Assembly (NCBI GenBank): GCA_016703105.1
Contig: JADJCS010000007.1
Span: 143,810 to 207,809, forward strand
DNA length: 64,000 nt
DNA from: Flavobacteriales bacterium
GTDB lineage: Bacteria; Bacteroidota; Bacteroidia; Flavobacteriales_F; PHOS-HE28
Direction of reading: 5' to 3'
The notes under the pieces were generated by a model that saw only the letters and a program-made list of their open reading frames with translations, made no database searches and was not told the origin of the DNA. Below are positions 1 through 16,553 of the stretch, one piece after another. Position 1 is the first letter of the stretch. Every line of letters starts with the position of its first letter. Made by a program: the position numbers and the translations under genes.

Positions 1-234
1 ATCCCTCCGGAAGACCGTGAACGCTTTGGGGATGAATTCTGAACCCTTCGGAGGCATCTTTCGGCAGCAAACGTAGCATCACTTACCAGGCCGGTTCCGC
101 CCCGCGGGACCCATCTATGCACCGGTGCCTGTTCCTCGTTCGTTCCGCAGATGCGGGCTGTGGTTGGTCCGTGTACCGAAATTCGCCGAGAGAACAGAGC
201 ACCGGATCGGAGCGGACAATTCTCACAACAGAAC

Positions 235-645: not shown

Positions 646-729
646 GTCCTGCTCCTGCCCGTCCGCTCCAGACACCAGCCCTTCCAGTGTGAGTTCCGTC
701 ACAGACCGGGAAAGCCGGCCGACCGACCT

Positions 730-1155
730 TTGCGCACCATGAAAAAGCTCCTGTTCCTGTTCATCCTCCTGTTCGCAGTGACAGGTGCCTTCCCGCAGAA
801 TGCCCCGCGCCACCACCGCATCATCATGCAGCTCACCAGCGGCGACACGCTGGTGCACAAGAACCTGATGAAACAGTTCAGGAACATGAAGGAAGCCGCT
901 CCCACCATGCAGCTGGAAGTGGTCTGTCATGGCCCGGGCATGGACATGCTGATGAGCGACCGCAGCATCGTGCAGGAAAAAGTGAAGGAGTTCGCCGCGA
1001 AAGGCATCGTGTTCCTGGCCTGTGAGAACACCATCAAGGAGCGCAGCCTCGACCGGACGAAGGTGGTCCCTGATGCGGGGTACGTGAAGGCCGGGATCAT
1101 CCACATCGTGGAGCGGCAGGAGGACGGCTGGAGCTACATCAAAGCGGGGTTCTGA
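730..1155 (+). CDS. DsrE/DsrF-like sulfur-relay family protein with N-terminal signal peptide
   Basis: Hydrophobic signal-like N-terminus (MKKLLFLFILLFAVTGAF). 'VVCHGPG ... FLACENT' arrangement is typical of the DsrE/YchN-like fold. Sits in a sulfur cluster. Confidence 0.55.
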   Translation: MRTMKKLLFLFILLFAVTGAFPQNAPRHHRIIMQLTSGDTLVHKNLMKQFRNMKEAAPTMQLEVVCHGPGMDMLMSDRSIVQEKVKEFAAKGIVFLACENTIKERSLDRTKVVPDAGYVKAGIIHIVERQEDGWSYIKAGF

Positions 1156-1158
1156 CGC

Positions 1159-2586
1159 ATGCGCATCGCATCCTCGCACCGATCGTCCAATGGTCGGTGG
1201 GGCCTGTCCCTTGTCCTATCGGTCGTGTTCCCCCTCTTCGTGAGCGCCCAGCACAGCGAGCAGGACATCCCCAGTGACGACAGCTTGCGAAGCACCGGCA
1301 AGCTGTACGACATCATGAAGCGGGGCGAAGTGGTGGGACGCTTCCGCCAGTACAATATGCTCACCATCAATGATGGAACACCGACGGACTACCATGCGGT
1401 GGCCTTCGGAGGCACGCTCGGCTTCACTTCGCAACGCTGGCATGGCACGCGCTTCAAGCTCAGCGGTGGCTACACCTTCGACTTGGCGACAAGCGACCTC
1501 ACCGTTCTCGACCCCATTACCGGTGCCAGCAACCGCTACGAGATCGGATTGTATGATGTGAACGACCCGCGCCACACCAACGACCTGGCCTACCTACACG
1601 AATTCCAGTTGGACTGGTTGTCGCGCAATGAACGAACACAGGTGGTGATCGGAAAACAAGAATTGAACACGCCCTTCCTCAACCCACAGGATGGGCGCAT
1701 GCACCCCAGCTTGTTCGAAGGCATCTGGGCACAGCACCGCACGACCCACGGCACAGCGCTACAAGGCGGATGGATCTATCGCGTGGCGCCCCGTGGCGCC
1801 AGCGAATGGTACACGGTGGCCGAGAGCATGTCCGTTTTCCCGGTCGGTCGCAACGTATACGGCGAGGGCGCAGAACATGGGGAACACCTCCAGAGCGCGG
1901 GAATTCTAGCGGCAAGCATCAAACAGAAGGTGTACCGCTCGGTGTCGATCACCGCCTGGAATGTTCACACCGAGAACGTCTTCAACAGCGCGTTGATGCA
2001 ACTTGATGCGGGCAAGAAAGAAGCCCGCTGGAGTGCGTCCACCATGGCCATCCGGCAGGACGCCGCGCATTATCGAGGGCACGGCAACGACAGTCTGTTG
2101 TACATGCCAGCGAGCGAAGCCTCTTGGGCGCTCAGTGGACGATTGCGCAATGTGCTCGGCAAATTCCGCTGGCAGCTGAACTACACGCGCATAACCGCGC
2201 ATGGCCGTTACCTGATGCCGCGCGAGTGGGGCCGCGACCCCTTCTTCACGTTCCTGCCGCGCGAGCGTAACGAAGGAGCCGGAGATGTACACGCAGCTTC
2301 ATTGAACCTGATCTGGAGGGCGGACAACGGCTGGCGGATCCAGGTGGATGGCGGTCTGTACCGGATGCCCGAACTCACCGATGCGCGGCTGAACAAGTTC
2401 GTGATGCCATCCTACACGCAGTTCGATGTGAACGCGCAATACCAGTTCAATGGCGGATGGAAGGGCCTTGCTGCGCAAGTACTGGTGCTGGCGAAGCTTC
2501 CACTGCATAGTAACCTCACTGAACGGCAGTCGATCAACAAGGTGGATATGCTGCACGCGGACCTGATCATCAACTACGTGTTCTGA
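1159..2586 (+). CDS. outer-membrane beta-barrel protein (porin-like), hypothetical
   Basis: Signal peptide. Alternating amphipathic beta-strand pattern rich in aromatics. C-terminal '...NYVF' with terminal Phe, typical of OMPs. Confidence 0.5.
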   Translation: MRIASSHRSSNGRWGLSLVLSVVFPLFVSAQHSEQDIPSDDSLRSTGKLYDIMKRGEVVGRFRQYNMLTINDGTPTDYHAVAFGGTLGFTSQRWHGTRFKLSGGYTFDLATSDLTVLDPITGASNRYEIGLYDVNDPRHTNDLAYLHEFQLDWLSRNERTQVVIGKQELNTPFLNPQDGRMHPSLFEGIWAQHRTTHGTALQGGWIYRVAPRGASEWYTVAESMSVFPVGRNVYGEGAEHGEHLQSAGILAASIKQKVYRSVSITAWNVHTENVFNSALMQLDAGKKEARWSASTMAIRQDAAHYRGHGNDSLLYMPASEASWALSGRLRNVLGKFRWQLNYTRITAHGRYLMPREWGRDPFFTFLPRERNEGAGDVHAASLNLIWRADNGWRIQVDGGLYRMPELTDARLNKFVMPSYTQFDVNAQYQFNGGWKGLAAQVLVLAKLPLHSNLTERQSINKVDMLHADLIINYVF

Positions 2587-2672
2587 CACGCGCGTCGCTC
2601 TGTGATGTCAGTCACCGACGGCGCTTGGCGAACTCCGCACCTTTGTACCGCGAAAGCAAAACACCATAGACC

Positions 2673-2972
2673 ATGTTCAAGACATTGTTCGGTATCGGCC
2701 CCAAAGTGGACCTCGGTCAGAAGATCAAGGAAGGAGCGACCATCGTTGACGTGCGCACGGCGGACGAGTTCCGCAGCGGTCATGTGCAGGGAGCGATCAA
2801 CATCCCGTTGGACCGCATCCAGGACGAGTTGAAGAAGCTCGACAAGAGCAAACCGGTGATCACCTGCTGCCGCAGCGGTGCGCGCAGTGGCATGGCCGCC
2901 GATGAATTGAAGCGCCACGGCTTCGACGTCTACAACGGTGGGCCCTGGACCACCTTGAAGAATTCCATGTGA
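2673..2972 (+). CDS. single-domain rhodanese-like sulfurtransferase
   Basis: Rhodanese active-site loop 'ITCCRSGARS'. ~100 aa. Close paralogue of 11432..11740. Confidence 0.85.
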   Translation: MFKTLFGIGPKVDLGQKIKEGATIVDVRTADEFRSGHVQGAINIPLDRIQDELKKLDKSKPVITCCRSGARSGMAADELKRHGFDVYNGGPWTTLKNSM

Positions 2973-3036
2973 GCATCCATGAGGCATTAGAGCCGTGCCA
3001 TTCGCGCGGTTCCCGCCTTTAACGACCTGGTCGATC

Positions 3037-3429
3037 ATGCGCAACCTCTTCGCTCCCGTCCGACTATCCGCACTGCCGCTTCTGCTGATGGCATGCACCA
3101 TGCCCCAACAAGGCACCAACAGCCTGGATGCGGCCGCCTTTGCCGTCCGCCTTGCGGAAAGCGATGCACAGTTGGTGGATGTGCGCACCGCCGCTGAATA
3201 TGCGGATGGTCACATCGCAGGTTCGCGGAACTTGGATCAGACCAGCGGGCAACTGGCACAGAACGTGAACGAACTGGAGAAGTCGAAACCTGTGCTGCTC
3301 TATTGCGCCTCCGGTCGTCGCAGTGCCGCAGCGCGCGCCTACCTTCAGCAGCAGGGCTTCACCGATGTGGTGGATCTGGCCGGTGGGATCGGCGCATGGG
3401 CCGGGGCTGGAAAGCCCATCGAACGCTGA
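3037..3429 (+). CDS. rhodanese-domain lipoprotein
   Basis: Lipoprotein-like signal 'LLLMAC'. Rhodanese catalytic loop 'LYCASGRRS'. Start trimmed from ORF 2995. Confidence 0.8.
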   Translation: MRNLFAPVRLSALPLLLMACTMPQQGTNSLDAAAFAVRLAESDAQLVDVRTAAEYADGHIAGSRNLDQTSGQLAQNVNELEKSKPVLLYCASGRRSAAARAYLQQQGFTDVVDLAGGIGAWAGAGKPIER

Positions 3430-3450
3430 TCGACGGCGTAGCTTTCGGGC

Positions 3451-4944
3451 ATGAGCGTAGGTGCAGCGCAGCTTGGCTTGCGCCAGAACTGGAAACAGTT
3501 CACCTTGCTCGTCATCGTCAACGCCTTCGTGGGCGGCATGGTGGGTATTGAACGCACGGTGCTGCCCATGCTGGCCGAACAGGACTTCGGCATCGCATCG
3601 CGGACGGCCGCGCTCTCCTTCATCGTGGCCTTCGGTATCAGCAAGGCGCTCAGCAACTACTTCGTGGGCAGACTGGCCGGTCGCTTCGGTCGCAAGTCGA
3701 TGTTGGTAACGGGCTGGTTGCTGGCTTTGCCCGTGCCGTTCATGTTGATCTATGCCGATGCGTGGTCGTGGATCGTGGCCGCCAACATCCTGCTGGGTAT
3801 CCATCAAGGCTTCGCATGGAGCAGCACTGTGGTGATGAAGATGGACCTCGTGGGCGAGAAGGACCGCGGCCTCGCCATGGGCTTGAACGAATTCGCCGGA
3901 TACCTCGCGGTGGCGGCGGTGGCCTTCCTCACCGGCTTGCTCGCTGCGGAATACGGCCCGCGGCCGGTTCCGTTCCAGGTGGGCATCGGTATCGCGGTGG
4001 TGGGCCTGCTGCTCACGGTGCTGTGGGTGAAGGATACTGGACACCATGTACATGCTGAAGCAGCGAAGAGCGCGGTGCCGCTGTTGGAAAAGCCCTTCCT
4101 CGATACCTCAGTACGCCATCGCGTGCTCGGAAGCGTGACGCAGGCGGGACTGGTGAACAACCTGAACGACGGCATGCTCTGGGGCCTGCTGCCGGTACTG
4201 CTGGCCGGGCAGGGCTTCAACACGGCGAGCATCGGGGCCATCGCGGCGGTGTATCCAGCCGTGTGGGGTTTGGGGCAATTGCTCACGGGCAAGCTCGCCG
4301 ACCATGTGGACCGCAAGCTGCTGCTGGTGCTGGGCATGGTGCTGCAAGGGATCGCGATCCTCTTCCTTCCCTATGTGGACGCACAAGGCACGTACATCGC
4401 GCTCAGCGCCACGCTCGGCCTAGGCACCGCGCTGGTCTACCCAACTTTCCTGGCCACCATCGCCGCGCACACACATCCGAAGCAACGCGCCGAGAGCCTC
4501 GGCATATTCCGCCTGTGGCGCGATCTGGGCTACGCCATCGGTGCGCTGCTCACCGGCCTCATCGCCGACCGCTTCGGGCTCACCGCCTCCATCCTCTCCA
4601 TCGGGGTCATCACCGTGATATCCGGTCTACTCGTTTGGTTGCGCATGCCGGCGGAACGTCGCTGCCTGGAGCCCATCGACCTGAAAAAGTGGTTGGAAAA
4701 ACCGGATGTGCGTGTAGTGGATGTGCGTTCCCCGGAAGAGTACGCGAGCGGTCACCTGCCGGAGGCCATCAACATACCCGTGGACCGCCTGCTGGAACAG
4801 GCGCGCACCTGGCCAAAGCGGCAGCGCATCGTTACCGTATGCGCCAAAGGCGGTGGCCGCAGCGCACAGGCTGCGCAGTTGTTGCGCGATGTGGGCTTCG
4901 GAAGGACGTGGTGGTTGTGCGGGGGCACATTGGGATGGAGCTGA
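3451..4944 (+). CDS. MFS transporter fused to C-terminal rhodanese domain
   Basis: About 12 predicted TM helices with MFS-type loop 'GRLAGRFGRK'. The C-terminal ~100 aa carry the rhodanese loop 'VTVCAKGGGRSAQAA' with active-site Cys. Confidence 0.8.
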   Translation: MSVGAAQLGLRQNWKQFTLLVIVNAFVGGMVGIERTVLPMLAEQDFGIASRTAALSFIVAFGISKALSNYFVGRLAGRFGRKSMLVTGWLLALPVPFMLIYADAWSWIVAANILLGIHQGFAWSSTVVMKMDLVGEKDRGLAMGLNEFAGYLAVAAVAFLTGLLAAEYGPRPVPFQVGIGIAVVGLLLTVLWVKDTGHHVHAEAAKSAVPLLEKPFLDTSVRHRVLGSVTQAGLVNNLNDGMLWGLLPVLLAGQGFNTASIGAIAAVYPAVWGLGQLLTGKLADHVDRKLLLVLGMVLQGIAILFLPYVDAQGTYIALSATLGLGTALVYPTFLATIAAHTHPKQRAESLGIFRLWRDLGYAIGALLTGLIADRFGLTASILSIGVITVISGLLVWLRMPAERRCLEPIDLKKWLEKPDVRVVDVRSPEEYASGHLPEAINIPVDRLLEQARTWPKRQRIVTVCAKGGGRSAQAAQLLRDVGFGRTWWLCGGTLGWS

Positions 4945-5029
4945 ACGCCGACCTCCAACCATCAGCACGACACGAAAAAGAACGCCCCGGCCGTTGATGA
5001 CCGGGGCGCCTTGAGCATTGACCGTGGGA

Positions 5030-5680
5030 TCAAGCCGGAGCCAGTTCCCTTTTCGCGAGATAGAAATCGATCAGTTCGATCCCCTTCTCATTGAGGCGTG
5101 CGTCGAGGTCCTTCAAGGTCTTTGGCGGTGGCACGATCACCTTGTCGCCTTTTTTCCAGTTCACGGGCATGGCACAGGCGTTCGCGTCCACGGTCTGCAT
5201 GGCTTCCAGCACACGCTTGATCTCATCCATGTTCCGGCCCACGTTCAGCGGGTAGTACATGATGAGGCGGATGATACCCTTGGGATCGATGAAGAACACG
5301 GCCCGGACCGCAGCGGTGCTGCTCGCATTGTCGTGAAGCATGCCGTAGAGATGGGCCACCTTCATATCGATATCCGCGATGATCGGAAAATCCATGTACA
5401 CACCGGTCTTCTCGCGCACCGCTTGTACCCAGGCCACATGGCTATGGATGCTATCGATGCTCTCGCCGATGAGCTTCGTATTGCGGTCCGCGAACCACTT
5501 CTTCTCCTGGGCGAAGCCGGAGAGCTCGGTGGTGCATACCGGCGTGAAGTCGGCCGGATGTGAGAAGAGAATTGCCCAACTACCCTTGATGTACTCGCTG
5601 AACTTGATCGGGCCGGTCGTGGTGAGGGCCTCGAAATCGGGAGCTTGGTCGCCGATGCGGGGCATGTGTGTGGTTTCCAT
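5030..5680 (-). CDS. 1-Cys peroxiredoxin (Prx6-like)
   Basis: 'FTPVCTTE' peroxidatic-Cys motif; whole-length similarity to 1-Cys Prx. True start may be Met at 5665. Confidence 0.9.
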   Translation of the reverse strand: METTHMPRIGDQAPDFEALTTTGPIKFSEYIKGSWAILFSHPADFTPVCTTELSGFAQEKKWFADRNTKLIGESIDSIHSHVAWVQAVREKTGVYMDFPIIADIDMKVAHLYGMLHDNASSTAAVRAVFFIDPKGIIRLIMYYPLNVGRNMDEIKRVLEAMQTVDANACAMPVNWKKGDKVIVPPPKTLKDLDARLNEKGIELIDFYLAKRELAPA

Positions 5681-5741
5681 GGTCGGGTTTGTTATCCGTC
5701 ACAAAGTGAACGCAATAACCGGTCCCGAAGGGTGACGAACA

Positions 5742-6431
5742 TCACTGAACTTGAACGAAGAGCCGGATCGCCTTCGGGTCGAAGCCCAAGCCGTCCACAT
5801 GCCCCATCCAACTGCGCTCCTTGTTGACCAAGTGTACGTGGATGTTCGTGTCGTGGTGCGTGAACACGGCCTTGTGCATGGTGGAAAAGAAGCCGAGCAT
5901 ATCAGCCTCCACGTCCTTCCGTACGAAGGTCTTCCGCCCCTTGTGGGCATCGTCCGGTGAGCGCACCACCGCACCCAGCGGAAGGTCCACCACATGGATC
6001 TCCGCACGCGCGATCCATCCGGACAACTTGAACGCCATCGGCCTGCTCTCGTGGGCGAACCGACTTGTGAGAAAACCATCCAGCTTCGCAAGACCCGTGA
6101 TGCTGTCCGGTAGCGGCACCTCCACCCATTCCGGCACGTTCGCATGCACAAAGAAGGGTGCGGATGCTTCCCGATCGACCTCTACGGCCAGTGCCGTATC
6201 GGAAGTCGCGCGCGACACATAGGCCACACCGTCCCACAGCAGCAACTCTCCTCGAAGGTGATCGAGGGGACCGATACCGAACGCGCCCTGCTTCGCGATC
6301 GTGTCCATGCGCACCAGCCCCGCGAGCTGACCATTGAACATGGTGTTGCGCATGGCGCCGGTAACGAGCACCTGCGCGGAGACTTCCCATGAACACAGGA
6401 GCAGCAACGCAGCGGTGTAAACCTTCCTCAT
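5742..6431 (-). CDS. acetolactate decarboxylase family protein (with predicted signal peptide)
   Basis: 'TM..G...G......gaFGIGp.d.l.GEl...DG..Y' and 'HVHLV...R.wMGHV' blocks match the ALDC fold (AlsD/BudA). Start set at MRKVYTAALLLL, which removes the overlap with the downstream gene. Confidence 0.7.
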   Translation of the reverse strand: MRKVYTAALLLLCSWEVSAQVLVTGAMRNTMFNGQLAGLVRMDTIAKQGAFGIGPLDHLRGELLLWDGVAYVSRATSDTALAVEVDREASAPFFVHANVPEWVEVPLPDSITGLAKLDGFLTSRFAHESRPMAFKLSGWIARAEIHVVDLPLGAVVRSPDDAHKGRKTFVRKDVEADMLGFFSTMHKAVFTHHDTNIHVHLVNKERSWMGHVDGLGFDPKAIRLFVQVQ

Positions 6432-6471
6432 CAGACCATCGGGAATGACCAATACCAGGTTGCCGACACGA

Positions 6472-8052
6472 TCAACGGATGAACCGCGCAGTGAATACGC
6501 GCTGACCGTGGCGCACCTCGACCATGTACGCACCCGGAGCCAGTTGTTGTAGATCCACCTCAAAGGAACGCTCCGCTCCTTTGGCATGCTCGGCCAGAAC
6601 CTGTACCGCGCGACCGACCGTGTCCAACAGGCGGATGCTATACGCTCCGGTCATGTCGGCTCCGATCGAAACGTGCAACACATCCCCCTCGCGGCGCAAC
6701 CGGATATCCACGGCAGCCCCATCCGGAACTAGAATGGATTGCGCCGGATCGACCAGCAGCACACGGAAGATCCGCGAAGAGGCCTCGCTCTGAACGCCGG
6801 TATTGATGAAGAAAATGTTGCCTGCGGTACTCTCGATCCCACCGACCACATGACCCAGCACGATGGTGTCACCCACGAACATTTGCTGGAGCATGATCCC
6901 GCTCGCGTTCTGCGGTGTTCCCGGCCACGGAACGAACTCGGCGCTGGCACCGAGCAATGCGGGCATTGTCCCGACCTGGGCCTCGATCAGGACACCTTGA
7001 CCATCGCGCTGCACCACGCTGATCGTGTTCACGAAGGGCACGTTGATATCGTCCATCAAGGTGCCGTTCCCATCGAAGTAGTAACGGCCGATACCCCCGA
7101 AGAACACGGACCGCATGGCGTTCGAATTAGCATCGTAGAGGCCCACATGGGCACTGTGGTACTGGTTCAGCAGTTGCTCGAACACCGGCACCACCGTGAC
7201 GTTCGTGTCGATGACGTCCAAGGTGTTCAGCCAGGGAATATCATCCACGTACTGGAACACACCCGTGAAGGCGGTGAAGCCCTCCTCTCCGTTCGGGAAG
7301 ATCTGTGGCAGCATGTTGTAGTCCCGACGGTGCAAGTTCATTGTATCCACCAACTCCCAGTAGTCGTTGATCGCCAGTGAGACACCGTCATCATCGATCG
7401 CGAAGCGGCGCACGGCATTGGTGTACTCCTGAATGAAGCCAGGTCCCTGGTTCGGCCCCATCGGATTGTACCGGCCGATGAAACGTTGCCCACCGACCAG
7501 GTAGAAGCGATCGTCTAGCAAGCGCATCTGGCCACCCGTGACCTCCATTCGCGGATCGGTGAGCTGCCGGAAGAAAGGTGCGATGGGTTGGGAGTTGCGA
7601 ATGGCGTCCATCACCCCGGCCAGATCGATCGCGGTGAGGTTGGGATACGTGATGTGGTCGAGCGCGGTGGGCGAATAGCCATAGCCTCCGGCGCAATACA
7701 GTGTGCTATCGCGCTGCTCGAATTCCATGTTGGTGCTCTGCAGCTGTTCCTCCATGGACTGCGGAAGCGCGGAGATCGGTGCGGACCAGACCTGTTGTGT
7801 CACAGGATCCACCACATAGGCACTTAGGTTGTTCCCGGTGGCGAGGAAGGCGAAAGGAGGCTGCCGACGGTGCAGGCCATCGGTGCGCCCGCCGATGATG
7901 AACCACTGCCCATCGTGCTGCCCCCATGCGAAGGATTGGAGCGCAGGCATGCCCGGCACCGTGACCTCCTCAAGCACCAACTCGCGCCCGTCGAAGTACT
8001 GCGCGGACAGGAATAATGGGAGAAATGCGAAGAGCGAGAGAAGTTGCTTCAT
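6472..8052 (-). CDS. secreted protein with T9SS C-terminal sorting domain
   Basis: Signal peptide MKQLLSLFAFLPLFLSAQ. The C-terminal ~80 aa form a beta-rich domain typical of Por/T9SS CTD. Confidence 0.65.
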   Translation of the reverse strand: MKQLLSLFAFLPLFLSAQYFDGRELVLEEVTVPGMPALQSFAWGQHDGQWFIIGGRTDGLHRRQPPFAFLATGNNLSAYVVDPVTQQVWSAPISALPQSMEEQLQSTNMEFEQRDSTLYCAGGYGYSPTALDHITYPNLTAIDLAGVMDAIRNSQPIAPFFRQLTDPRMEVTGGQMRLLDDRFYLVGGQRFIGRYNPMGPNQGPGFIQEYTNAVRRFAIDDDGVSLAINDYWELVDTMNLHRRDYNMLPQIFPNGEEGFTAFTGVFQYVDDIPWLNTLDVIDTNVTVVPVFEQLLNQYHSAHVGLYDANSNAMRSVFFGGIGRYYFDGNGTLMDDINVPFVNTISVVQRDGQGVLIEAQVGTMPALLGASAEFVPWPGTPQNASGIMLQQMFVGDTIVLGHVVGGIESTAGNIFFINTGVQSEASSRIFRVLLVDPAQSILVPDGAAVDIRLRREGDVLHVSIGADMTGAYSIRLLDTVGRAVQVLAEHAKGAERSFEVDLQQLAPGAYMVEVRHGQRVFTARFIR

Positions 8053-8076
8053 GGGTGTTCTGGTCTAGTTGATCGA

Positions 8077-9279
8077 TCAGCCTTGTGCCCTGCCACGCAG
8101 GATGAAGTTCCAGTACAACCGCGGAAGCACTTCCCGCTTCAACTGGTACATGCTCCAGCGCTCTTTGCTCTGGTCGAAGGGAAATGTCTCCTGGGGTTTG
8201 TTGTCGTAGTCGAACTCCGCGAGCACCAGCTTGCCGTACCCGGTGATCAATGGGCACGAGGTATACCCGTTGTAGTCCGCAGGCAGGGGCTTGTTGGCCA
8301 TGGCCGCGAGCATGTTCGCTACGACGGTGGGCGTTTGCTTGCGGATCGCCGCACCTGTCTTCGAGGTAGGTAAGCCGGCAGCGTCACCGATGCTCCACAC
8401 GTTCGCATGCTTCACATGGCGCAGGCTGTGCTTGTCCACATCCACCCAACCGGCGGCGTTCGCCAATGGGCTCTGCTTGATGAAATCGGGAGCGCTCTGT
8501 GGCGGTGTCACATGGAGCATGTCATAGTCCACCCACTTCACCTCGTCCTTGTTCTTCTCCCCGAAGCCAACGAAACGCGCACGCCTGTTCGGGCCATCGA
8601 TCTCTTCGAGCTTCCAGAAGAAGTTGAGATTGATCCCTCCGCGCTCCACCACCTTCAGCAAGGTCTTCTCATAGCGTGGTATCGCGAAGAGCTTGGTTCC
8701 CCCGCTCCAGTATTGGATGTCCATGTCCTTCAGCACACCTTCCCTGCGCCAATGGTCCGCGGCGAGGTACATGATCTTGTGCGGAGCACCACCGCATTTC
8801 ACGGGCGTGTGCGGGTTGTGGAACACCGCCTTGCCCTTTTTCAAGCCCTTGATGCACTCCCAAGTGTAGGGGGCGTAGGTGAAGCTGTAGTTCGAGCAGA
8901 CGCCGTTCTTCCCGAGGTTCTCCTGCAAGCCCTTCACCCCGTTCCAATCCAACTGGATGCCGGGGCACACGAGCAAGTGATCATAACCGATCGCCTCCCC
9001 ACTCGCCAGCACCACCTCGTTCCGCTCCGGTTGGAACGTGGCCACCTTGTCCTTGATCCACTCCGCTCCCTTTGGAATAAAGTCCTTCTCGTTGCGTTCG
9101 GTGTCCTTGATGTTGAAGGCGCCGCCCCCGACCAAGGTCCAGGCAGGTTGGTAGTAGTGCTTTTCCGAAGGTTCCACGATACCGACCTTCAGCTTGCCGT
9201 TCTTCAATAACAACAAGGCGGCTGCGGAAAGACCAGCGTTCCCGCCACCGATCACGAGGACTTGGAAGTGCTTTGCCAT
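8077..9279 (-). CDS. sqr: sulfide:quinone oxidoreductase (FAD-dependent, type II SQR)
   Basis: N-terminal Rossmann 'VLVIGGGNAG'. Conserved Cys-containing blocks and 'IGDAAG' second dinucleotide motif. Length and overall similarity to SQRDL-type SQR. Start trimmed to MAKHF. Confidence 0.8.
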   Translation of the reverse strand: MAKHFQVLVIGGGNAGLSAAALLLLKNGKLKVGIVEPSEKHYYQPAWTLVGGGAFNIKDTERNEKDFIPKGAEWIKDKVATFQPERNEVVLASGEAIGYDHLLVCPGIQLDWNGVKGLQENLGKNGVCSNYSFTYAPYTWECIKGLKKGKAVFHNPHTPVKCGGAPHKIMYLAADHWRREGVLKDMDIQYWSGGTKLFAIPRYEKTLLKVVERGGINLNFFWKLEEIDGPNRRARFVGFGEKNKDEVKWVDYDMLHVTPPQSAPDFIKQSPLANAAGWVDVDKHSLRHVKHANVWSIGDAAGLPTSKTGAAIRKQTPTVVANMLAAMANKPLPADYNGYTSCPLITGYGKLVLAEFDYDNKPQETFPFDQSKERWSMYQLKREVLPRLYWNFILRGRAQG

Positions 9280-9436
9280 GGCGACCGTGTTAGACGATGC
9301 GAACGTATCGCGACCCCTCACCCCCATCGGTGACGATCCTCACCGAACAGCCATTATCCTGACAAGGATCAGTAAAAGGCCACCGCTCCGCATGGAGTTT
9401 TGTTCCGCCGATGTCAACCATGCGCGGCGAACCACC

Positions 9437-10849
9437 ATGAGGATCGAGCAGATCTATACCGGATGTCTGGCGCACGGCGCCTATTACATCGAGAGCAACG
9501 GCGAAGCGGTCGTGATCGATCCGTTGCGCGAGGTACAACCTTACATCGATCGTGCGACGCGCGACGGTGCGAAGATCAAATACGTGCTGGAGACACACTT
9601 CCACGCGGATTTCGTGAGCGGCCATCTGGACCTGGCGAAGAAGACCGGTGCCACGATCGTGTACGGCCCCACGGCCAAGCCCGGCTTCGAAGCGATGGTA
9701 GCCAACGACGGGCAGGAACTCAACGTGGGCAAGGCGCGCATCCGGGTGATCCATACGCCGGGTCACACATTGGAGAGCACCACCTATTTGCTCATCGATG
9801 AGAGCGGAAAAGAGAAGTGCATCTTCACCGGGGACACGCTCTTCATAGGCGATGTGGGACGCCCGGACCTGGCACAGCATGTGATCGCCGACCTCACCGA
9901 GGACAAGCTGGCGGGTATGCTCTACGACTCGTTGCGGAACAAGATCATGCCTTTGAGCGATGATCTGATCGTGTACCCGAACCACGGTGCCGGCAGCGCG
10001 TGCGGCAAGATGATGAGCAAGGAAACGCAGGATACGCTGGGCCATCAGAAGCGCACGAACTACGCACTACGGCCTGATATGACCAAGGAGGAGTTCAAGA
10101 AAGAACTGCTCACCGGCCTGATGCCGCCTCCGGGCTACTTCCCACAGAACGTACTGATGAACATCAGAGGCTACGAGTCCCTGGACACGGTAATGGAACG
10201 CGCACGTGTGGCGCACTCCCCTGAAGCGTTCGAGGCCGCGGCAGCCGCGCACGAAGCCCTCATCATCGATGCGCGTAGCGCGGGCGACTTCGCAAAGGGC
10301 TTCATTCCCGGTAGCATCAACTTCGGCTTGGATGGCAGCTTTGCGATGTGGGTGGGCGAGATGGTCCCCGACCTCAAGCAGCACATCCTGCTGGTCACCG
10401 ATCCCGGAAAGGAAGAGGAGGCCATGATCCGCCTGAGCCGCATCGGGCACGATGGGCTCGTAGGCTACTTGAAGGGCGGCTTTGAAGCCTGGAAAGCGGC
10501 CGACAAACCCGTGGATACCGTGGCACGGATCACCGCGGAGGACTTCGCCGCGCGGTATGCGCTAAAGCCGTTGGTCTTCGACGTGCGAAAGAAGAGCGAA
10601 TACGAGGCGGAACATGTCGTGGGCGCGGTGAACATCCCGCTCAATGAGTTGAACAACCACCTCGCGGAGGTCCCGAAGGACAAGCCCTTCATCCTGCACT
10701 GCGCCGGAGGCTACCGCAGCATGATCGCTGCGTCGATGCTGAAAGCACGTGGCTGGGAGAACTTCCTGGACGTAGCCGATGGATTCGCGGGGATCAAGAA
10801 CACCAGTGTACCACGCACGGCCTTCGTACAACCGACCACTCTGCTGTAA
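9437..10849 (+). CDS. persulfide dioxygenase (MBL-fold) fused to two rhodanese domains (CstB-like)
   Basis: MBL motif 'HFHADFVSGH'. Two C-terminal rhodanese domains, the second with catalytic Cys 'LHCAGGYRS'. Divergent from sqr. Start at ATG 9437 (MRIEQIYTG). Confidence 0.85.
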   Translation: MRIEQIYTGCLAHGAYYIESNGEAVVIDPLREVQPYIDRATRDGAKIKYVLETHFHADFVSGHLDLAKKTGATIVYGPTAKPGFEAMVANDGQELNVGKARIRVIHTPGHTLESTTYLLIDESGKEKCIFTGDTLFIGDVGRPDLAQHVIADLTEDKLAGMLYDSLRNKIMPLSDDLIVYPNHGAGSACGKMMSKETQDTLGHQKRTNYALRPDMTKEEFKKELLTGLMPPPGYFPQNVLMNIRGYESLDTVMERARVAHSPEAFEAAAAAHEALIIDARSAGDFAKGFIPGSINFGLDGSFAMWVGEMVPDLKQHILLVTDPGKEEEAMIRLSRIGHDGLVGYLKGGFEAWKAADKPVDTVARITAEDFAARYALKPLVFDVRKKSEYEAEHVVGAVNIPLNELNNHLAEVPKDKPFILHCAGGYRSMIAASMLKARGWENFLDVADGFAGIKNTSVPRTAFVQPTTLL

Positions 10850-10876
10850 GCGCGCTGACGTTTCGGACCTGTTTGC

Positions 10877-10905
10877 GCGAAGGGCTACCGGTGGTAGCCC
10901 TTCGC
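10877..10905 (+). terminator. perfect 13-bp stem / 3-nt loop hairpin downstream of the PDO-rhodanese gene
   Basis: GCGAAGGGCTACC-GGT-GGTAGCCCTTCGC, 28 nt after the stop codon. No U-tract. Confidence 0.3.
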
Positions 10906-10994
10906 CTTGACGGGTACGACGTTCGCCATGGTGATGATCGTCACGAAAGGGGCGGATCCTTCATCCGACCTTTGCGGTAGAAACACCACGCACA

Positions 10995-11198
10995 ATGAAG
11001 CCGAACATGGGTACCGCCGATCGCATCGTTCGCATCCTCGTCGCTGCGGTCATCGCCATCTTGTACTTCACCGGAACCGTGAGCGGTACGCTCGGGATCG
11101 TGCTTCTCGTGCTCGCAGGGGTCTTCGTGGCCACCAGCGTAGTGAGCTTCTGCCCGCTTTATGCCCCGTTCGGCATGAGCACATGCCCGAAGAAATGA
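10995..11198 (+). CDS. DUF2892 (YgaP-like) small membrane protein
   Basis: 67 aa, two TM segments, C-terminal 'CPLYAPFGMSTCP' as in DUF2892 proteins that accompany rhodaneses. Confidence 0.6.
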   Translation: MKPNMGTADRIVRILVAAVIAILYFTGTVSGTLGIVLLVLAGVFVATSVVSFCPLYAPFGMSTCPKK

Positions 11199-11428
11199 AG
11201 CGCACGTTGCTACTTACCGGTGTCGGCATCGTTCTCGGTGCGGTCGCTGGCTGGTTCTACTGGAGCCAGTTCGGCTGCACCACGGGCTGTTCCATCACCT
11301 CCAGCCCGGTGAACAGCACTTTGTACGGCGCGTTCATGGGGGGCTTGTTCCTCAACTCGTTCACGAAGCCGGCCAAGAGCCCTTCACCACCAGAGGGGAA
11401 CAACTGCGGCACGAATTCCACCCCCTGA
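11195..11428 (+). CDS. small membrane protein with CxxGC motif (DUF6132-like)
   Basis: ATGA start/stop overlap with the upstream gene. One TM helix followed by 'GCTTGCSITSSPVNSTLYGA'. Confidence 0.45.
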   Translation: MKRTLLLTGVGIVLGAVAGWFYWSQFGCTTGCSITSSPVNSTLYGAFMGGLFLNSFTKPAKSPSPPEGNNCGTNSTP

Positions 11429-11431
11429 CCG

Positions 11432-11740
11432 ATGCTACGCTCGCTCTTCGGGATCGGTCCCAAGGTGGACTTGAAGCAGGTGCTTGCTCAAGGCGCTGTC
11501 ATCCTGGACGTACGTACACCCGAGGAATTCGCGCAGGGGCATGTGCAGGGCTCCATCAATATACCGCTGGACGTCCTTACCCAGAACCTGCACCAATTGG
11601 ACAAGGACAAACCGGTGATCACGTGTTGTCGCAGCGGCATGCGGAGCGGGCAGGCGGTACATGTGCTACAGGACCACGGTTTCACCGTACACAATGGAGG
11701 GCCTTGGACCGAGGTCGATCAACTGGTCAAGCAACGATGA
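11432..11740 (+). CDS. single-domain rhodanese-like sulfurtransferase (paralogue of 2673..2972)
   Basis: 'ITCCRSGMRS' loop. Very similar along its whole length to the 2673 gene (MxxxLFGIGPKVDL..., ...NGGPWT...). Confidence 0.85.
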   Translation: MLRSLFGIGPKVDLKQVLAQGAVILDVRTPEEFAQGHVQGSINIPLDVLTQNLHQLDKDKPVITCCRSGMRSGQAVHVLQDHGFTVHNGGPWTEVDQLVKQR

Positions 11741-11985
11741 GAGCACGCCTATTGACCGACTGGCATGCGATGCGCTGGATGCGGCTCGCCTTCGCCATTG
11801 TCTTCCTGTTCGCCGGCATCGCCCAACACGAGCCGGTGGCCTACGCTGCCGCCGCCTTCTTTGGGTTCCAGGCACTTTTTAACGTAGGCTGTTGCGGTGC
11901 CGCCTGCGCGCCACCGCGCAACAAGGTCGAGCAAGGCACGAGCCGCCCTGCGACAGCGGACGTCAGTTATGAAGAGATCAAATGA
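11737..11985 (+). CDS. small hypothetical membrane protein
   Basis: ATGA overlap with the rhodanese stop; hydrophobic core; Cys-rich 'GCCGAACA'. Weak call. Confidence 0.35.
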   Translation: MRARLLTDWHAMRWMRLAFAIVFLFAGIAQHEPVAYAAAAFFGFQALFNVGCCGAACAPPRNKVEQGTSRPATADVSYEEIK

Positions 11986-12296
11986 CCATGGAGACCAAGA
12001 GCCCTTCCTTTAGCACGCTCATCAACGGTGAAAAGCCGGTGGTGGTGGATTTCTACGCCGAATGGTGCGGCCCATGCAAAATGATGAAGCCGATCCTGGA
12101 TCAGTTCAAAGGGATGGTGGGCGATCGCGCCACCGTGATCAAGGTGGATGTGGACAAGAACCCGGCAGCGGCGCAGGCCTATGGCGTGCGGGGCGTGCCC
12201 ACCCTGGCCATCTTCAAAAAGGGGGAGATCGTCTGGCGGAAGTCCGGCGTGGTGAGCGCCGCCCAACTAGAGGGCGTCCTTCAGCCCTTTCTCTGA
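11982..12296 (+). CDS. trxA: thioredoxin
   Basis: WCGPC active site; 104 aa; Trx fold spacing. Confidence 0.9.
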   Translation: MTMETKSPSFSTLINGEKPVVVDFYAEWCGPCKMMKPILDQFKGMVGDRATVIKVDVDKNPAAAQAYGVRGVPTLAIFKKGEIVWRKSGVVSAAQLEGVLQPFL

Positions 12297-12911
12297 GGCC
12301 GGTTTCCAGTCGGCGGAAAGGTGTACTTCGAGGGAGCCCCGCGAAACGGTGACACGTCCCACTTGCTGAAGTTGATGCAACAGCCGGGTGATCACCTCAC
12401 GCGGTGAGTTGAGTTCTTGCGCGATATCCTGGTGGGTGACCTTCAGGATGTGGTTGCCGGTGGCCTGTACGCGCTTCACCAGGTAGTTCCAGAGCTGTTC
12501 ATCGAGCTTTCGGAAGGCCACCACCTCGATGGTCTCCAACAGTTCGCCGAAGCGCTGGGCCTGCGTGTCGCTCACATACCGTCGCCATTCTGGGTATACC
12601 ATCCATTCCTCCATGTACCGCGCGGGTATCATCAGCAACTCGGCATCCTCCTCCACCACGGCCATCACACTGCTGATGCGTTTCGAAACACAACATGTGA
12701 GGGACATGGCACAGGATTCGCCCGGCAGAATGTGGTAGAGGAAGCGCTCCCGCCCTTCGGGGTCCTGGGCCAGGATGCGCAGGCTGCCCTTCTGTACGAT
12801 CGGGATGTGCGTGATGGGGTCACCGGCGCGCATCAACTCGGCACCCGCCGGTAGGGAACGATGCACCACCACGCTCTCGAACTCGCGCTGCAACTTGGGG
12901 TCGGTGAACAT
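12267..12911 (-). CDS. Crp/Fnr-family transcriptional regulator
   Basis: N-terminal cNMP-binding-like beta-roll, C-terminal HTH 'ITHQDIAQELNSPREVITRLL'. Confidence 0.8.
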   Translation of the reverse strand: MFTDPKLQREFESVVVHRSLPAGAELMRAGDPITHIPIVQKGSLRILAQDPEGRERFLYHILPGESCAMSLTCCVSKRISSVMAVVEEDAELLMIPARYMEEWMVYPEWRRYVSDTQAQRFGELLETIEVVAFRKLDEQLWNYLVKRVQATGNHILKVTHQDIAQELNSPREVITRLLHQLQQVGRVTVSRGSLEVHLSADWKPASEKGLKDAL

Positions 12912-12939
12912 GCGTGCAAAGTAGCACGCCCACCCTCAC

Positions 12940-13401
12940 CTAGCGTGCGTCGGGCACCACCTTGCCGCCGGGTCTGGACACCTTGGACGCATCGTAGTGG
13001 AAGAACATATTCGCCCAAATGATCTTGCTGAGCGCATAGAACCAAGGGGCGATAAGCAAAAGGGGGATCCCGACGGCCAGCATCTGTCCGGCCATGCCAA
13101 GCCCCGGGAAAAGCACGCTGACGGCCACCCACACGGTGGCGAACTCGGCCACGCCCAAGGCGTAGGACACATACATCGCTCCGGTGTAGAAGCCGATCTC
13201 CTTGTCGAACTTCGTTCCGCACACGTTGCAATGGCTGTGCAGGTCGCCTACCCTGGCCAGGTCATAGGGATGCGACACGAAGAACTCGCCTTCATGGCAT
13301 ACTGGGCACTTGAAGGTGAAGATGCTGTACAACTTGGTCCCCTTCCACCGCATACCACAAAGTGACGGAACCTTGTTCAGCCGTTCGGTGAGGATCATCA
13401 C
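12940..13401 (-). CDS. DUF983-like membrane protein with CxxC...CxxC
   Basis: 'CPVCHEG' ... 'CNVCG' zinc-ribbon-like pair followed by two TM helices. Confidence 0.5.
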   Translation of the reverse strand: MMILTERLNKVPSLCGMRWKGTKLYSIFTFKCPVCHEGEFFVSHPYDLARVGDLHSHCNVCGTKFDKEIGFYTGAMYVSYALGVAEFATVWVAVSVLFPGLGMAGQMLAVGIPLLLIAPWFYALSKIIWANMFFHYDASKVSRPGGKVVPDAR

Positions 13402-13426
13402 CCTGGAGGTTTGAACGGCGGTTACC

Positions 13427-14821
13427 TCAGCCTTCGCTGCACATCTTCGCCGGGTCCACCCACTTGTCGAAATCCTCGGCGGTGACGTGGCCGAGCGCCA
13501 GCGCTGCGGCCTTGAGCGTGGTGCCTTCCTTGTGCGCCTTCTTGGCGATCTCGGCCGCCTTGTAGTAGCCGATGTGCGGGTTGAGGCTGGTCACAAGCAT
13601 CAATGAGTTCTCGAGGTGACGCTTGATCACCTCCTTGTTCGGCTCGATGCCTTCCGCACAGCGGTCGTTGAAGCTCACGCAGGCATCACCGAGCAGGCGC
13701 GCGCTCTGTAGCACGTTGGCGGCGATCAGCGGCTTGAAGACGTTCAACTCGAAGTGGCCCTGCATCCCACCGATGCTCACGGCCACATCATTGCCGATCA
13801 CTTGCGCGCAGACCATGGTGAGCGCTTCCGGCTGCGTGGGGTTCACCTTGCCGGGCATGATGGAGGAACCGGGTTCGTTATCGGGGATCACCAGTTCACC
13901 GATGCCGCTGCGTGGGCCGCTGCTGAGGATGCGTATGTCGTTGGCGATCTTCATAAGGGATACGGCGAGGCGCTTCAGCGCACCGCTCAGTTCCACCATC
14001 GCATCGTGCGCGGCGAGTGATTCGAACTTGTTCGGCGCGGTGATGAAGGGTAGGCCGGTCAGCTCGGCGATCTTCTTCGCCACCAGCACGCTGTAGCCCT
14101 TCGGAGCGTTGAGGCCCGTGCCCACGGCGGTGCCGCCGAGCGCCAGTTCCCGCACCATCTCCAGGGCGTTGTTCACCGCGCGGATGCCGTTGTCCAGTTG
14201 CTGCACGTAGCCGCTGAACTCCTGGCCGAGGGTGAGCGGCGTGGCGTCCATGAAGTGCGTGCGGCCGGTCTTCACGATGCTGGCGAAATCCTTCGCCTTC
14301 TTGTCCAGTGTGTCGCGCAGTTTCTTCACTCCCGGCAGTGTGACCTCCGCGGTCAGTTTGTAGGCCGCGATGTGCATCGCGGTGGGATAGGTATCGTTGC
14401 TGCTCTGGCTCTTGTTGACGTCGTCGTTCGGGTTGAGCACCTTCTGCTCATCGGCGAGTTTGCCACCGTTCACCACGTGCGCGCGGTAGGCGATCACCTC
14501 GTTCACGTTCATGTTGCTCTGCGTGCCGCTGCCGGTCTGCCAGATCACCAAGGGGAACTGGTCATCGAGCGCCCCGGTGAGGATCTCGTCACACACCTTG
14601 CCGATCAGGTCGCTCTTCTCCTGTGGCAACTTGCCGAGCTCCACGTTCGTGAGCGCTGCGGCCTTCTTCAGGTAGGCGAAGGCATGTACGATCTCGCGCG
14701 GCATGCTGCCCGGCGGGCCGATCTTGAAGTTGTTGCGGCTGCGCTCGGTCTGCGCGCCCCAGTACTTGTCGGCGGGGACCTTCACCTCGCCCATCGTGTC
14801 CTTTTCGATCCGGTATTCCAT
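13427..14821 (-). CDS. fumC: fumarate hydratase, class II
   Basis: '[13 protein letters not shown]' signature; 464 aa; full-length similarity to FumC. Confidence 0.95.
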
Positions 14822-14908
14822 GAACTCAGTTGTCAGTTGTTCGTTGCCAGTTGTCCGTCATGGTGGTCGGCGCCCCGACAACTACCATCTGACAACCGAC
14901 AACCATCA

Positions 14909-16006
14909 TCACACCTTCTGTGATTGCCCCTGCTGCATCAGAAATGCTTTCAGGAACTCATCGATGTATCCGTTCAGCACATCGTCCACGCTGCTGGTCT
15001 CGTGTTCGGTGCGCACATCCTTCACTAGCTTGTAGGGCTGTAGCACATAATTGCGGATCTGGCTGCCCCACTCGATCTTCTTCTTGCCCGCCTCGATCTC
15101 GCTGCGCTTGCTGCGGCGCCGTTCCAGTTCGGCCTCGTAGAGCTGGCTCTTCAGCAGTTGCAGGGCCTTGGTCTTGTTGTCCAGCTGGCTGCGGGTCTCG
15201 GTGTTCTCGATCACGATGCCTGTGGGCGCGTGGCGCAGGCGCACGCCGGTCTCCACCTTGTTCACGTTCTGTCCACCGGCACCGCCGCTGCGGAAGGTAT
15301 CCCAGGTGATGTCCGCCGGATTGATGTCGATGTCGATGGTCTCGTCCACCAGCGGGAACACGTACACGCTCACGAAACTCGTATGGCGCCGCGCATTGCT
15401 GTCGAACGGACTGATGCGCACCAAGCGATGCACGCCGTTCTCCCCTTTCAGCATGCCGAAGGCGAACTCGCCGTCCACCTCCATGGTGGCCTGCTTGATG
15501 CCCGCTGCGTCACCATCCTGGTAATCAAGGATCCGCGTCTTGTAGCCGTTCTTCTCCGCCCACATGCGGTACATGCGCAGGAGCATCAAGGCCCAATCGT
15601 TGCTCTCGGTGCCCCCGGCGCCGCTGGTGATCTGCACCACGGCGCTCAGCGGGTCCTCCTCCGCGCTGAGCATGTTCTTGAACTCGAGTTCTTCCAACGC
15701 TTCGCTGGCCTTCTTGAACTGGGCGTCGAGTTCTTCCTCGGGCACATCTTTGCTCTTGAAGAAGTCGTAGGTCACCTCCAGGTCGTCCACTTCGCGCTTC
15801 ACGCCTTCGAAGAGCTCCACCCAACGTTTGATCTCGCGGATCTTCTGCATCACTCCGCGGGCCTTCTTCTGGTCGTTCCAGAAGTCGGGGTCCTGGGTGT
15901 ACTTCTCCTCCTCCAGGATCCGCCCGCGCTTCTCCTCGACGTCCAGAAAGCCTTTGAGGGCTTCGAGGCGTTCCTTCAATCCGGTGATCTTGTCGATGGT
16001 GACCAT
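14909..16006 (-). CDS. prfB: peptide chain release factor 2 (single uninterrupted frame)
   Basis: GGQ motif '[10 protein letters not shown]' and SPF motif 'RISPFDS'. 365 aa with no +1 programmed frameshift. Confidence 0.9.
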
Positions 16007-16091
16007 GGGCGCCAGCGCTGGCTGGGGGGCTTTGAGCGCACTGCTTTGGGCAGGCAGGCGGCAAAAGTAAGCGGGGCGCGGTGTTGGGGGA

Positions 16092-16553
16092 TCAGTCCTC
16101 CTCCCGCCCCATCGCCGCCCGCACCAGATCGGGTTCGAAGCCGCGGCCGATCAGGTAGCGCAACGCGCGCATGCCGCGCAGTGGTTCGGGCACGCTGCTC
16201 AGTTTCTGCATTTGCTTCCGCAGCAAATTCACGAGCATCGTCCGGTACTCGCCCACATCAATGGCCTGCAAGCCGAATCGGATGCACGGCGCCGAAACGC
16301 GCTTCTGCTGCAAAGCCTGCTGGATCTTCCGTCGCCCCCAGCCCTTCTGCCGGAACTTGCTCACGGCGAAATGCTCCGCGAAGCGCTTCTCATCCAGGTA
16401 GCGCTCGGCGATCAAGCGTGCGATGATGGGCTCGACCTCGCCCTTATGCGCACCCCATCCGTACAGCTTATCGCGCACCTCCTGCTGGCAGCGCTCCTGC
16501 CGGGCGCAATAGGCACGGGCTTTTGAAAGTGCTTCAGGAACGGGAGCGGCCAT
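16092..16553 (-). CDS. recX: recombination regulator RecX
   Basis: ~150 aa, three-helical-repeat pattern, similarity to RecX. Confidence 0.75.

Follow-up and report, generated by a model that had tools for sequence, protein, structure and literature searches.

Reviews up to August 2026 assign dedicated persulfide sensors to only three protein families, CsoR, ArsR and Fis, and the targets that a 2026 review gives for them are sulfide:quinone oxidoreductase (SQR), persulfide dioxygenase (PDO), sulfurtransferases, TauE and YeeE/YedE (PMC13467558). In Escherichia coli, the ygaVP genes pair an ArsR-type sensor with YgaP and are derepressed by sulfide (PMC9774250); under H2S, a DUF2892 gene of Azospira goes up about 10-fold (PMC5358917), and in Chlorobaculum a loosely related CRP-like motif lies upstream of the sulfide-induced psrABC genes. 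A survey of 185 Bacteroidetes genomes by Xia et al. (2017) found 22 SQRs of type II and 194 PDOs of type III, and a type III PDO from the flavobacterial genus Zunongwangia was active together with an SQR in E. coli (PMC5702731). Here we describe a divergent sqr/pdo gene pair on a 64-kb stretch of contig JADJCS010000007.1 from a Flavobacteriales bacterium (the window), in which a sulfur gene cluster occupies 0.7-13.4 kb. The enzyme pair is real but ordinary for the phylum, as it is already known in Bacteroidetes, and the new part is the regulatory layer, which from its sequence appears to be a seven-promoter regulon under an uncharacterised Crp-family protein with a cysteine triad, a protein that is found with similar sulfur genes at about 160 loci of Bacteroidota.

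Both enzyme genes were found where the initial annotation had placed them, sqr at 8077..9279 on the minus strand (400 aa from an ATG at 9279) and pdo at 9437..10849 on the plus strand (470 aa), separated by the expected divergent gap of 157 nt (9280..9436). The sqr product aligns with human mitochondrial SQOR (6mp5) over residues 3-397 (395 residues; E 2.7e-113), carries the flavin adenine dinucleotide-binding GxGxxG motif as GGGNAG at residue 11, and retains the redox cysteine pair as C162 (VKCGGAP) and C342 (YTSCPL), aligned to the human VKC and YTSC motifs (C201, C379). By this similarity and these motifs it is a full-length type II SQR, rather than another flavoprotein disulfide reductase devoid of the pair, and is predicted to catalyze sulfide-dependent quinone reduction. 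The pdo product could be aligned end to end with two solved proteins that join a metallo-beta-lactamase domain to two rhodanese domains, 3tp9 (E 7e-73) and 3r2u (E 1e-53); the latter is labelled in the database only as a "metallo-beta-lactamase family protein", and we take it to be Staphylococcus aureus CstB. Pfam, the structure matches and the motifs together assign the product to the type III (CstB-like) PDOs followed by a pseudo-rhodanese and an active rhodanese. The metal-binding motifs are retained, with the iron-binding motifs of 3tp9 and 3r2u kept as HFHAD from residue 54 (HxHxD), HTPGH up to H110, and GD at G132-D133. The cysteine of the GAGSxCGK motif, also found in the 3r2u chain, is C189 (GAGSACGK), the middle rhodanese has D322 at the catalytic cysteine position, and the last rhodanese has C422 in HCAGGYRS.

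The initial annotation had also proposed that a shared operator be sought in 9280..9436, and one was found both there and at five other promoters of the cluster. The motif GTGA-N6-TCAC occurs in seven exact copies in the window against 1.13 expected, a count that was reached by no shuffle. Six of these copies lie in intergenic regions of the cluster (at 689, 2602, 5732, 9330, 10931 and 13388), and each has a -7 box (nAnnTTTG) exactly 22 nt downstream, on one side only, with a start codon 4-27 nt past the -7 element. On the plus strand, the box GTGAGTTCCGTCAC at 689..702 with its -7 box GACCTTTG at 725..732 is predicted to drive dsrE-porin, GTGATGTCAGTCAC at 2602..2615 with CACCTTTG at 2638..2645 would drive rhodA-rhodB-MFS-Rhod, and GTGATGATCGTCAC at 10931..10944 with the same -7 box GACCTTTG at 10967..10974 would drive the operon that begins with the gene for a YgaP-like transmembrane protein (ygaP-TM). 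On the minus strand, GTGATGTTCGTCAC at 5732..5745 with TCACTTTG at 5702..5709 precedes the peroxiredoxin gene prx, GTGAGGATCGTCAC at 9330..9343 with TACGTTCG at 9300..9307 forms a class II-type sqr promoter, and GTGATGATCCTCAC at 13388..13401 with TCACTTTG again at 13358..13365 precedes the operon of a zinc-ribbon membrane protein and the Crp/Fnr-family regulator (ZnTM-crp), which implies positive autoregulation. The dsrE ATG at 739 follows its -7 box so closely that a near-leaderless transcript is implied. The seventh exact copy, at 34972, was rejected as a chance match because it lies inside an open reading frame (ORF) read by eye as RNase E/G and has no -7 box; relaxed matches at 26447, 61857 and 62862 are likewise at chance level (4.65 per window).

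The 157-bp gap itself contains the perfect palindrome GGTGACGATCCTCACC and holds two operators 29 bp apart. Box 1, the exact copy at 9330, serves sqr, and box 2, found by allowing two mismatches in the box, serves pdo as a weaker CTGA-N6-TCAG variant (CTGACAAGGATCAG, 9359..9372, plus strand) whose -7 box GAGTTTTG at 9395..9402 keeps the spacing of the other sites and ends 34 nt before the pdo ATG. In the four genomes that share this arrangement, the two boxes and their two -7 elements do not vary, in contrast to the spacers, which have diverged. Elsewhere, pdo genes of the same clade also carry a variant (CTGA or ATGA) as the proximal box, and an exact box often precedes it by 28-29 bp. Just before pdo, a short upstream ORF of six codons, ATGCGCGGCGAACCACCATGA (MRGEPP*, 9416..9439), ends with a stop codon overlapping the pdo ATG, and the pdo leader with this ORF is conserved in the window (W) and in the loci L004, L005 and L010 (L-numbers denote loci of relatives), which do not share the spacer upstream of the leader. 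An inverted repeat in this region (I1, 9384-9429) was dropped as a candidate, as it is not conserved in L005 or L010. With the operator shared between the gap and five other promoters, and with a Crp/Fnr gene next to them, the coherent regulon that had been proposed for this cluster gains support.

In order to describe the promoter geometry across relatives, we used a sample of 80 non-redundant loci (1.29 Mb) from genome contigs encoding relatives of the crp gene, the closest genomes being the Flavobacteriales metagenome-assembled genomes JADJRW01 and JAGNSU01. The Bacteroidota -7 consensus TAnnTTTG (10.1101/172254) was searched for with one mismatch allowed, and its position was recorded relative to each box. 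These close loci contain 189 exact boxes (23-34 in Markov controls) and 130 composite promoters of box and -7 element (0-1 in the controls), with at least one composite promoter in 70 of the 80 loci and a concentration within 2 kb of crp. The -7 element sits at one fixed offset from the box in 127 oriented flanks, starting about 29-29.5 nt from the box centre and 22 nt after TCAC, and any other offset accounts for 0-7. The 134 unique promoters, put into a frequency matrix, give GTGAyGATCrTCAC - 22 nt - gAcCTTTG, and there is no conserved TTG in these promoters at the place expected for a -33 element (positions 14-20). The central six bases of the box favour yGATCr, making the whole 14-mer palindromic, and GATC is present in about 70% of promoters over all loci.

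If the -7 octamer spans -12 to -5, the box centre falls at -41.5. In class II activation by CRP or FNR, the site is centred near -41.5. With the start positions predicted, the promoters thus combine a dimer site near -41.5, a fixed distance to the -7 element and no -33 element, a layout that fits activator-dependent class II promoters, and from this sequence layout we infer activation, not repression, at the cluster promoters. A sigma-70 promoter scan yielded nothing useful; the promoters of these organisms are of the -33/-7 type. Rfam gave no match in 1..16500 at E <= 0.1, so no riboswitch accounts for the conserved leaders.

The association of box and gene is also retained in these close relatives, where 48 of 54 ygaP-TM, 24 of 28 prx and 10 of 11 sqr orthologues are immediately preceded by an exact box. 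For pdo, a box either immediately precedes the gene or is in operon range in 36 of 41 cases. The first gene after the box is ygaP-TM in 40 loci, prx in 24, DUF6132 in 14, sqr and the Zn-ribbon gene in 11 each, and tauE (followed by pdo), dsrE and a rhodanese gene in 5 each. Only the closest genomes (L004, L005 and L010) have the contiguous form of the cluster, and its modules are usually split in other relatives.

The link between the regulator and the boxes could be examined through natural variation in the recognition helix, which in the window protein reads R171-E-V-I-T-R176. For this comparison a distant sample was added, consisting of metagenome contigs scanned with an alignment of 42 distant members of the regulator family, all with three cysteines and 33-46% identical to the window protein, and about 160 loci with a readable recognition helix were sorted by helix and box. 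The helix R-E-V-[IV]-[TS]-R (106 loci) goes with 145 GTGA..TCAC promoters and 0 GTAA..TTAC promoters, and the helix R-V-V-[IV]-S-R (50 loci) goes with 1 GTGA..TCAC promoter and 81 GTAA..TTAC promoters. The latter composites number 81 in the metagenome loci against 0-3 in controls, and the distant pdo and sqr promoters have GTAAC-N4-GTTAC palindromes at the same 22-nt spacing from a canonical TAnnTTTG. The E/V position of the helix (E172 in the window regulator) aligns with CRP E181. The substitutions E181V, E181L and E181K in CRP change specificity at the same base pair (G:C to A:T, position 7); these classical altered-specificity mutants are reportedly those of Ebright et al. in 1984. Taken with the palindrome, the clustering of boxes beside crp and the box before the regulator's own operon, this covariation makes the assignment strong, and the adjacent Crp/Fnr protein is thereby predicted to act on these boxes, presumably by binding them directly. 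Judging from the contigs compared, the regulatory layer and its matching helix/box switch are conserved across Flavobacteriales, Chitinophagales, Sphingobacteriales and Cytophagales.

The regulator gene (crp, 12267..12911, minus strand) encodes a protein with the two domains of the Crp/Fnr family, the cyclic nucleotide monophosphate (cNMP)-binding-like beta-roll PF00027 (E 6e-12) and the helix-turn-helix PF13545 (HTH_Crp_2; E 2e-8). Its fold matches include CRP, FNR, HcpR (9day) and 3dv8, and the last of these, an uncharacterised structural-genomics protein, is its best solved relative. The only cysteines, C67, C73 and C74, all lie in the cNMP phosphate-binding cassette, within a segment, GESCAMSLTCCVSKR, that aligns with the CRP cassette, and they occupy the positions of CRP I70/G71 and E77/E78 (aligned segment GESCAMSLTCCVSKRIS). 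The cyclic AMP (cAMP) contacts of CRP (G71, E72, R82 and S83) are not kept in the aligned cassette segment of the regulator, and its score with the NCBIfam CRP model, 34 bits, is below the cut-off of 266. The N-terminal cysteine cluster of FNR is absent from the sequence, which has no cysteine before residue 67, and no CsoR/CstR, ArsR (SqrR/BigR) or FisR-type sensor domain occurs in any protein of the 0.7-13.4 kb cluster. The C-x5-CC pattern is kept in 76 of 83 close genome loci (one subclade has C-x5-CS) and in 76 of 80 distant metagenome loci. At E <= 1e-30 the family numbers 106 representative clusters (50% identity). C67 is kept without exception in the 139 representatives of the wider family that were aligned. 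H60 is invariant in the close clade, and 83 of the 139 wider-family representatives have Y at this position. The AlphaFold model of the regulator is of moderate quality (predicted local distance difference test score, pLDDT, 76) and puts the cysteines at a short helix and a low-confidence loop. In the L005 orthologue (JADJDP010000003.1), a TGA codon replaces that of the conserved Cys73 (ACC TGA TGC), which might encode selenocysteine, mark a pseudogene or stem from an error in long-read assembly; a second crp copy of this metagenome-assembled genome is on L052.

Among the distant loci, sulfur genes lie within 8 kb of the regulator in 45 of the 64 that were informative, with pdo in 30, rhodanese genes in 37 and sqr in 13. 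The first gene after a composite promoter in the distant loci is pdo in 24 cases and tauE in 20, followed by sqr (9), sulP and the Zn-ribbon gene (7 each), rhodanese and yeeE/yedE genes (6 each), the regulator itself (5), cydA (2), and prx and trx (1 each). As this target set matches the genes controlled by known persulfide sensors, and as ygaVP and the Azospira DUF2892 gene offer analogies, we infer that the signal would be sulfide-derived sulfane sulfur, read by the pocket cysteines. The cydA gene (cytochrome bd subunit I) and a DinB-family gene stand directly behind composite promoters in L119 and in another metagenome locus, and the cydA placement suggests that sulfide-resistant respiration is part of the wider regulon.

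Altogether, we favour a reading in which a sulfide pathway is embedded in a seven-promoter regulon activated by a Crp/Fnr sensor with a cysteine pocket, and to this reading we give a probability of roughly 0.6. The type II SQR would make sulfane sulfur and the CstB-like PDO-rhodanese would oxidise the persulfide, taking sulfide to thiosulfate or sulfite. The sqr and pdo promoters would be two of the seven of a single regulon of about 18 genes (0.7-13.4 kb), each with the 14-bp palindrome GTGAyGATCrTCAC, whose centre lies about 41.5 bp before the expected start and whose end lies 22 nt before the -7 element. The adjacent Crp/Fnr protein would bind these boxes as a dimer and activate transcription in class II style, its own operon included. 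In the sqr/pdo gap, box 1 would drive sqr leftward and the weaker box 2 would drive pdo rightward. Sulfane sulfur derived from sulfide would be the most likely inducer, and the three cysteines that stand in place of the cAMP-binding residues would sense it.

Several observations weigh against this reading. No sulfur gene lies within 8 kb in 19 of the 64 informative distant loci, and prx and trx are targets that a regulon for oxidative or disulfide stress would have as well. In the wider family C73 and C74 are variable, only 51 of the 139 representatives having all three cysteines, and the structural model is disordered or poor exactly at residues 73-76. The three pocket cysteines could instead hold a heme, an iron-sulfur (Fe-S) cluster or a metal, and activation is drawn from geometry and the missing -33 element, with which a repressor overlapping the -33 region would also be compatible.

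Such a repressor would sit over the -33 region and block RNA polymerase until the signal arrives, as CstR, SqrR and YgaV do, and the box does overlap the would-be -33 position. Of the dedicated persulfide sensors that have been characterised, all but FisR (the CstR and SqrR/BigR/YgaV types) are indeed repressors (PMC13467558; PMC9774250). The spacing at these promoters, however, does not vary by a single base over about 130 close and 81 distant cases, no TTG is present as a -33 element, and at the pdo promoters the boxes stand in tandem, 28-29 bp apart. The operators of repressors usually vary in position, and the base-exact spacing with no -33 TTG is the signature of class II activation by CRP and FNR, leaving repression as quite an improbable account. 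It is far less probable still that the boxes are an upstream element of an alternative sigma factor, or sites of another factor, and are not bound by the neighbouring Crp protein at all. Fixed spacing to the -7 box is what a sigma element would show, but the box is a 14-bp perfect palindrome, which implies binding by a dimer, and at its core is the same GTGA-N6-TCAC that the E. coli CRP consensus contains (TGTGA-N6-TCACA). In 70 of 80 loci the boxes cluster no farther than 2 kb from crp, and the G-to-A switch of the box falls on exactly the expected base when the E181 equivalent becomes V.

The more serious doubt concerns the signal, since the regulator and boxes could be as described and yet respond to peroxide, disulfide stress, low oxygen, sulfite or thiosulfate, or to sulfide through a heme, Fe-S or metal cofactor. 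This we consider unlikely, though the least unlikely of the alternatives. The prx and trx genes are among the most frequent targets in close relatives, cytochrome bd belongs to the distant regulon, H60 is invariant in the close clade, and cofactor-bearing Crp-family sensors do exist, with HcpR (9day) and FNR among the structural matches; CooA and HcpR hold heme. On the other hand, the commonest targets are sulfur-specific (pdo, tauE, sqr, rhodaneses and yeeE/yedE), no catalase, superoxide dismutase or OxyR-type gene is among the targets, H60 is not kept in the wider family, and the regulator is without the FNR-type N-terminal cysteine cluster. Somewhat more doubtful, and in any case compatible with a cysteine-pocket activator of a sulfide pathway, is the view that the cluster is there to gain energy or acquire sulfur, by using sulfide or thiosulfate lithoheterotrophically, instead of for detoxification, with the porin, the periplasmic DsrE and rhodanese proteins and the MFS-rhodanese importing sulfur compounds. 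SQR passes electrons to the quinone pool, the regulon includes the porin, periplasmic sulfur carriers and transporters, and SulP and YeeE/YedE importers appear in the distant regulons. Set against this, the window cluster has no sox, dsr or hdr-like genes, sqr accompanies the regulator in just 11 of the 80 close loci and 13 of the 64 distant loci that were informative, and the sulfite exporter gene tauE is a core target.

For the genes around the enzyme pair, Pfam agreed with the initial annotation on the MFS-rhodanese fusion, the YgaP-like DUF2892 protein, the thioredoxin, the 1-Cys peroxiredoxin and the Crp/Fnr protein. The stand-alone rhodaneses, given there as four, number three (2673..2972, 3037..3429 and 11432..11740), and the cluster has six rhodanese domains when the MFS fusion and the two within PDO are included. 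The DsrE-like protein with a signal peptide (739..1155, plus strand) does match Pfam DsrE, but weakly, at 21 bits against a cut-off of 22.7 (E 3.8e-4). It is followed on the same strand by an OprD-like outer-membrane porin (1159..2586; Pfam OprD, 29.4 bits), the single-domain rhodanese RhodA (2673..2972, from the domain count), RhodB, a rhodanese with a signal or lipoprotein peptide (3037..3429; Pfam Rhodanese, E 9e-22), and the MFS transporter with a C-terminal fused rhodanese (3451..4944; Pfam MFS_1 and Rhodanese). The 1-Cys peroxiredoxin gene prx (5030..5680, minus strand; Pfam AhpC-TSA and 1-cysPrx_C) comes next. Between sqr and prx, and on the same strand as both, stand two further genes. 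Directly downstream of sqr is that of a 526-aa protein with a type IX secretion system sorting signal (6472..8052, minus strand, from sequence and homologue comparison), and the last gene of the sqr transcription unit encodes a secreted acetolactate-decarboxylase-like protein (5742..6431, minus strand; Pfam AAL_decarboxy, E 8.5e-19). The sorted protein comes after sqr in 8-10 loci of relatives; no functional domain was found in it despite more than 3000 homologues, and no sulfur link could therefore be drawn.

The invariant partner of the regulator is a convergent plus-strand operon that encodes the YgaP-like transmembrane protein (DUF2892, 10995..11198; Pfam YgaP-like_TM, E 3e-23), a DUF6132-like small membrane protein with a CxxxC motif (11195..11428, start codon uncertain; Pfam), the single-domain rhodanese RhodC (11432..11740; Pfam), a small membrane protein with a GCCG motif and no Pfam family that locus comparison shows to be conserved in this operon (11737..11985), and thioredoxin (trx, 11982..12296; Pfam). 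The 3' ends of trx and crp overlap by 30 nt (12267..12296; 18 nt in L001), and transcription of one could interfere with the other. On the minus strand, a Zn-ribbon (CxxC...CxxC) membrane protein, weakly DUF983-like, is encoded at 12940..13353 and, by locus comparison, is co-transcribed with crp, an arrangement that recurs in about 40% of the close genome loci and in some of the distant ones; the protein is a possible accessory sensor or partner. Elsewhere in the window are peptide chain release factor 2 (14909..16006, recognized by eye and from a PCRF/RF-1 Pfam call on the 88% identical L001 orthologue), a type I restriction-modification methyltransferase (21475..23124; PADLOC MTase_I, E 9e-189) and an IS110-family transposase-like ORF judged by eye from its translation (33484..34392). 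The gene for release factor 2, prfB, usually carries a programmed +1 frameshift, and the N-terminus of this ORF may sit in another frame.

In the open-access papers searched, no Crp-type persulfide sensor is described, and no description of the regulation of Bacteroidetes type III PDO genes was found. We regard it as an even chance that the Crp/Fnr proteins with the cysteine triad make up a fourth class of dedicated sulfide/persulfide sensors, spread throughout the Bacteroidota, that is, activators that would read sulfane sulfur through cysteines of the former cyclic-nucleotide pocket and exert class II control over pdo, sqr, tauE, rhodanese and sulfur-transporter genes. If this is true, a Crp-fold activator whose pocket is lined with cysteines would represent a new design of sensor, and the promoter code of a box 22 nt before the -7 element would predict sulfide-responsive genes in any Bacteroidota genome or metagenome, including those of lineages from the gut, the sea and wastewater. 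Genes for type III PDOs are close to universal among Bacteroidetes, at 194 in 185 genomes (PMC5702731), and the natural switch of E to V in the helix and G to A in the box is a ready-made test of specificity.

Compared with known systems, the enzyme pair is that of the type II SQR and type III PDO reported for Bacteroidetes by Xia et al., where regulation was not described (PMC5702731). The cluster shares with the S. aureus cst operon (cstR; tauE-cstA-cstB-sqr) the enzyme logic, the type II SQR, the CstB-type PDO-Rhod-Rhod protein, several sulfurtransferase domains including a DsrE-like one, and the TauE exporter, found here in relatives. It differs from cst in its regulator, as CstR is a CsoR-family repressor with a cysteine pair and a Crp/Fnr protein with class II-type promoters is found here, and in the regulon, which adds a porin, periplasmic carriers, peroxiredoxin, thioredoxin and small cysteine-containing membrane proteins. 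E. coli YgaP is a rhodanese fused to a transmembrane domain, of which the core operon here is a split version with a YgaP-like transmembrane protein and a separate rhodanese, whereas the sensors of the ygaVP and SqrR/BigR systems are ArsR-family repressors, unlike the Crp-type protein here, and their operators and mode of control are also unrelated. FisR of Cupriavidus resembles the proposed regulator in activating an sqr/pdo unit rather than repressing it (PMC13467558), but it is an AAA+ enhancer-binding protein acting at sigma-54 promoters, where a Crp-fold dimer at -7 promoters of the primary sigma factor is predicted here. In contrast to CRP and FNR, the protein has neither the cAMP-binding residues nor the N-terminal Fe-S cysteines, and it has instead three cysteines in the cassette and works with a Bacteroidota -7 element. 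It nevertheless shares with E. coli CRP and FNR the two-domain fold, the R-E-x-x-x-R helix, the GTGA-N6-TCAC core and a site centre near -41.5, and its E-to-V/G-to-A covariation parallels the classical E181 altered-specificity mutants of CRP.

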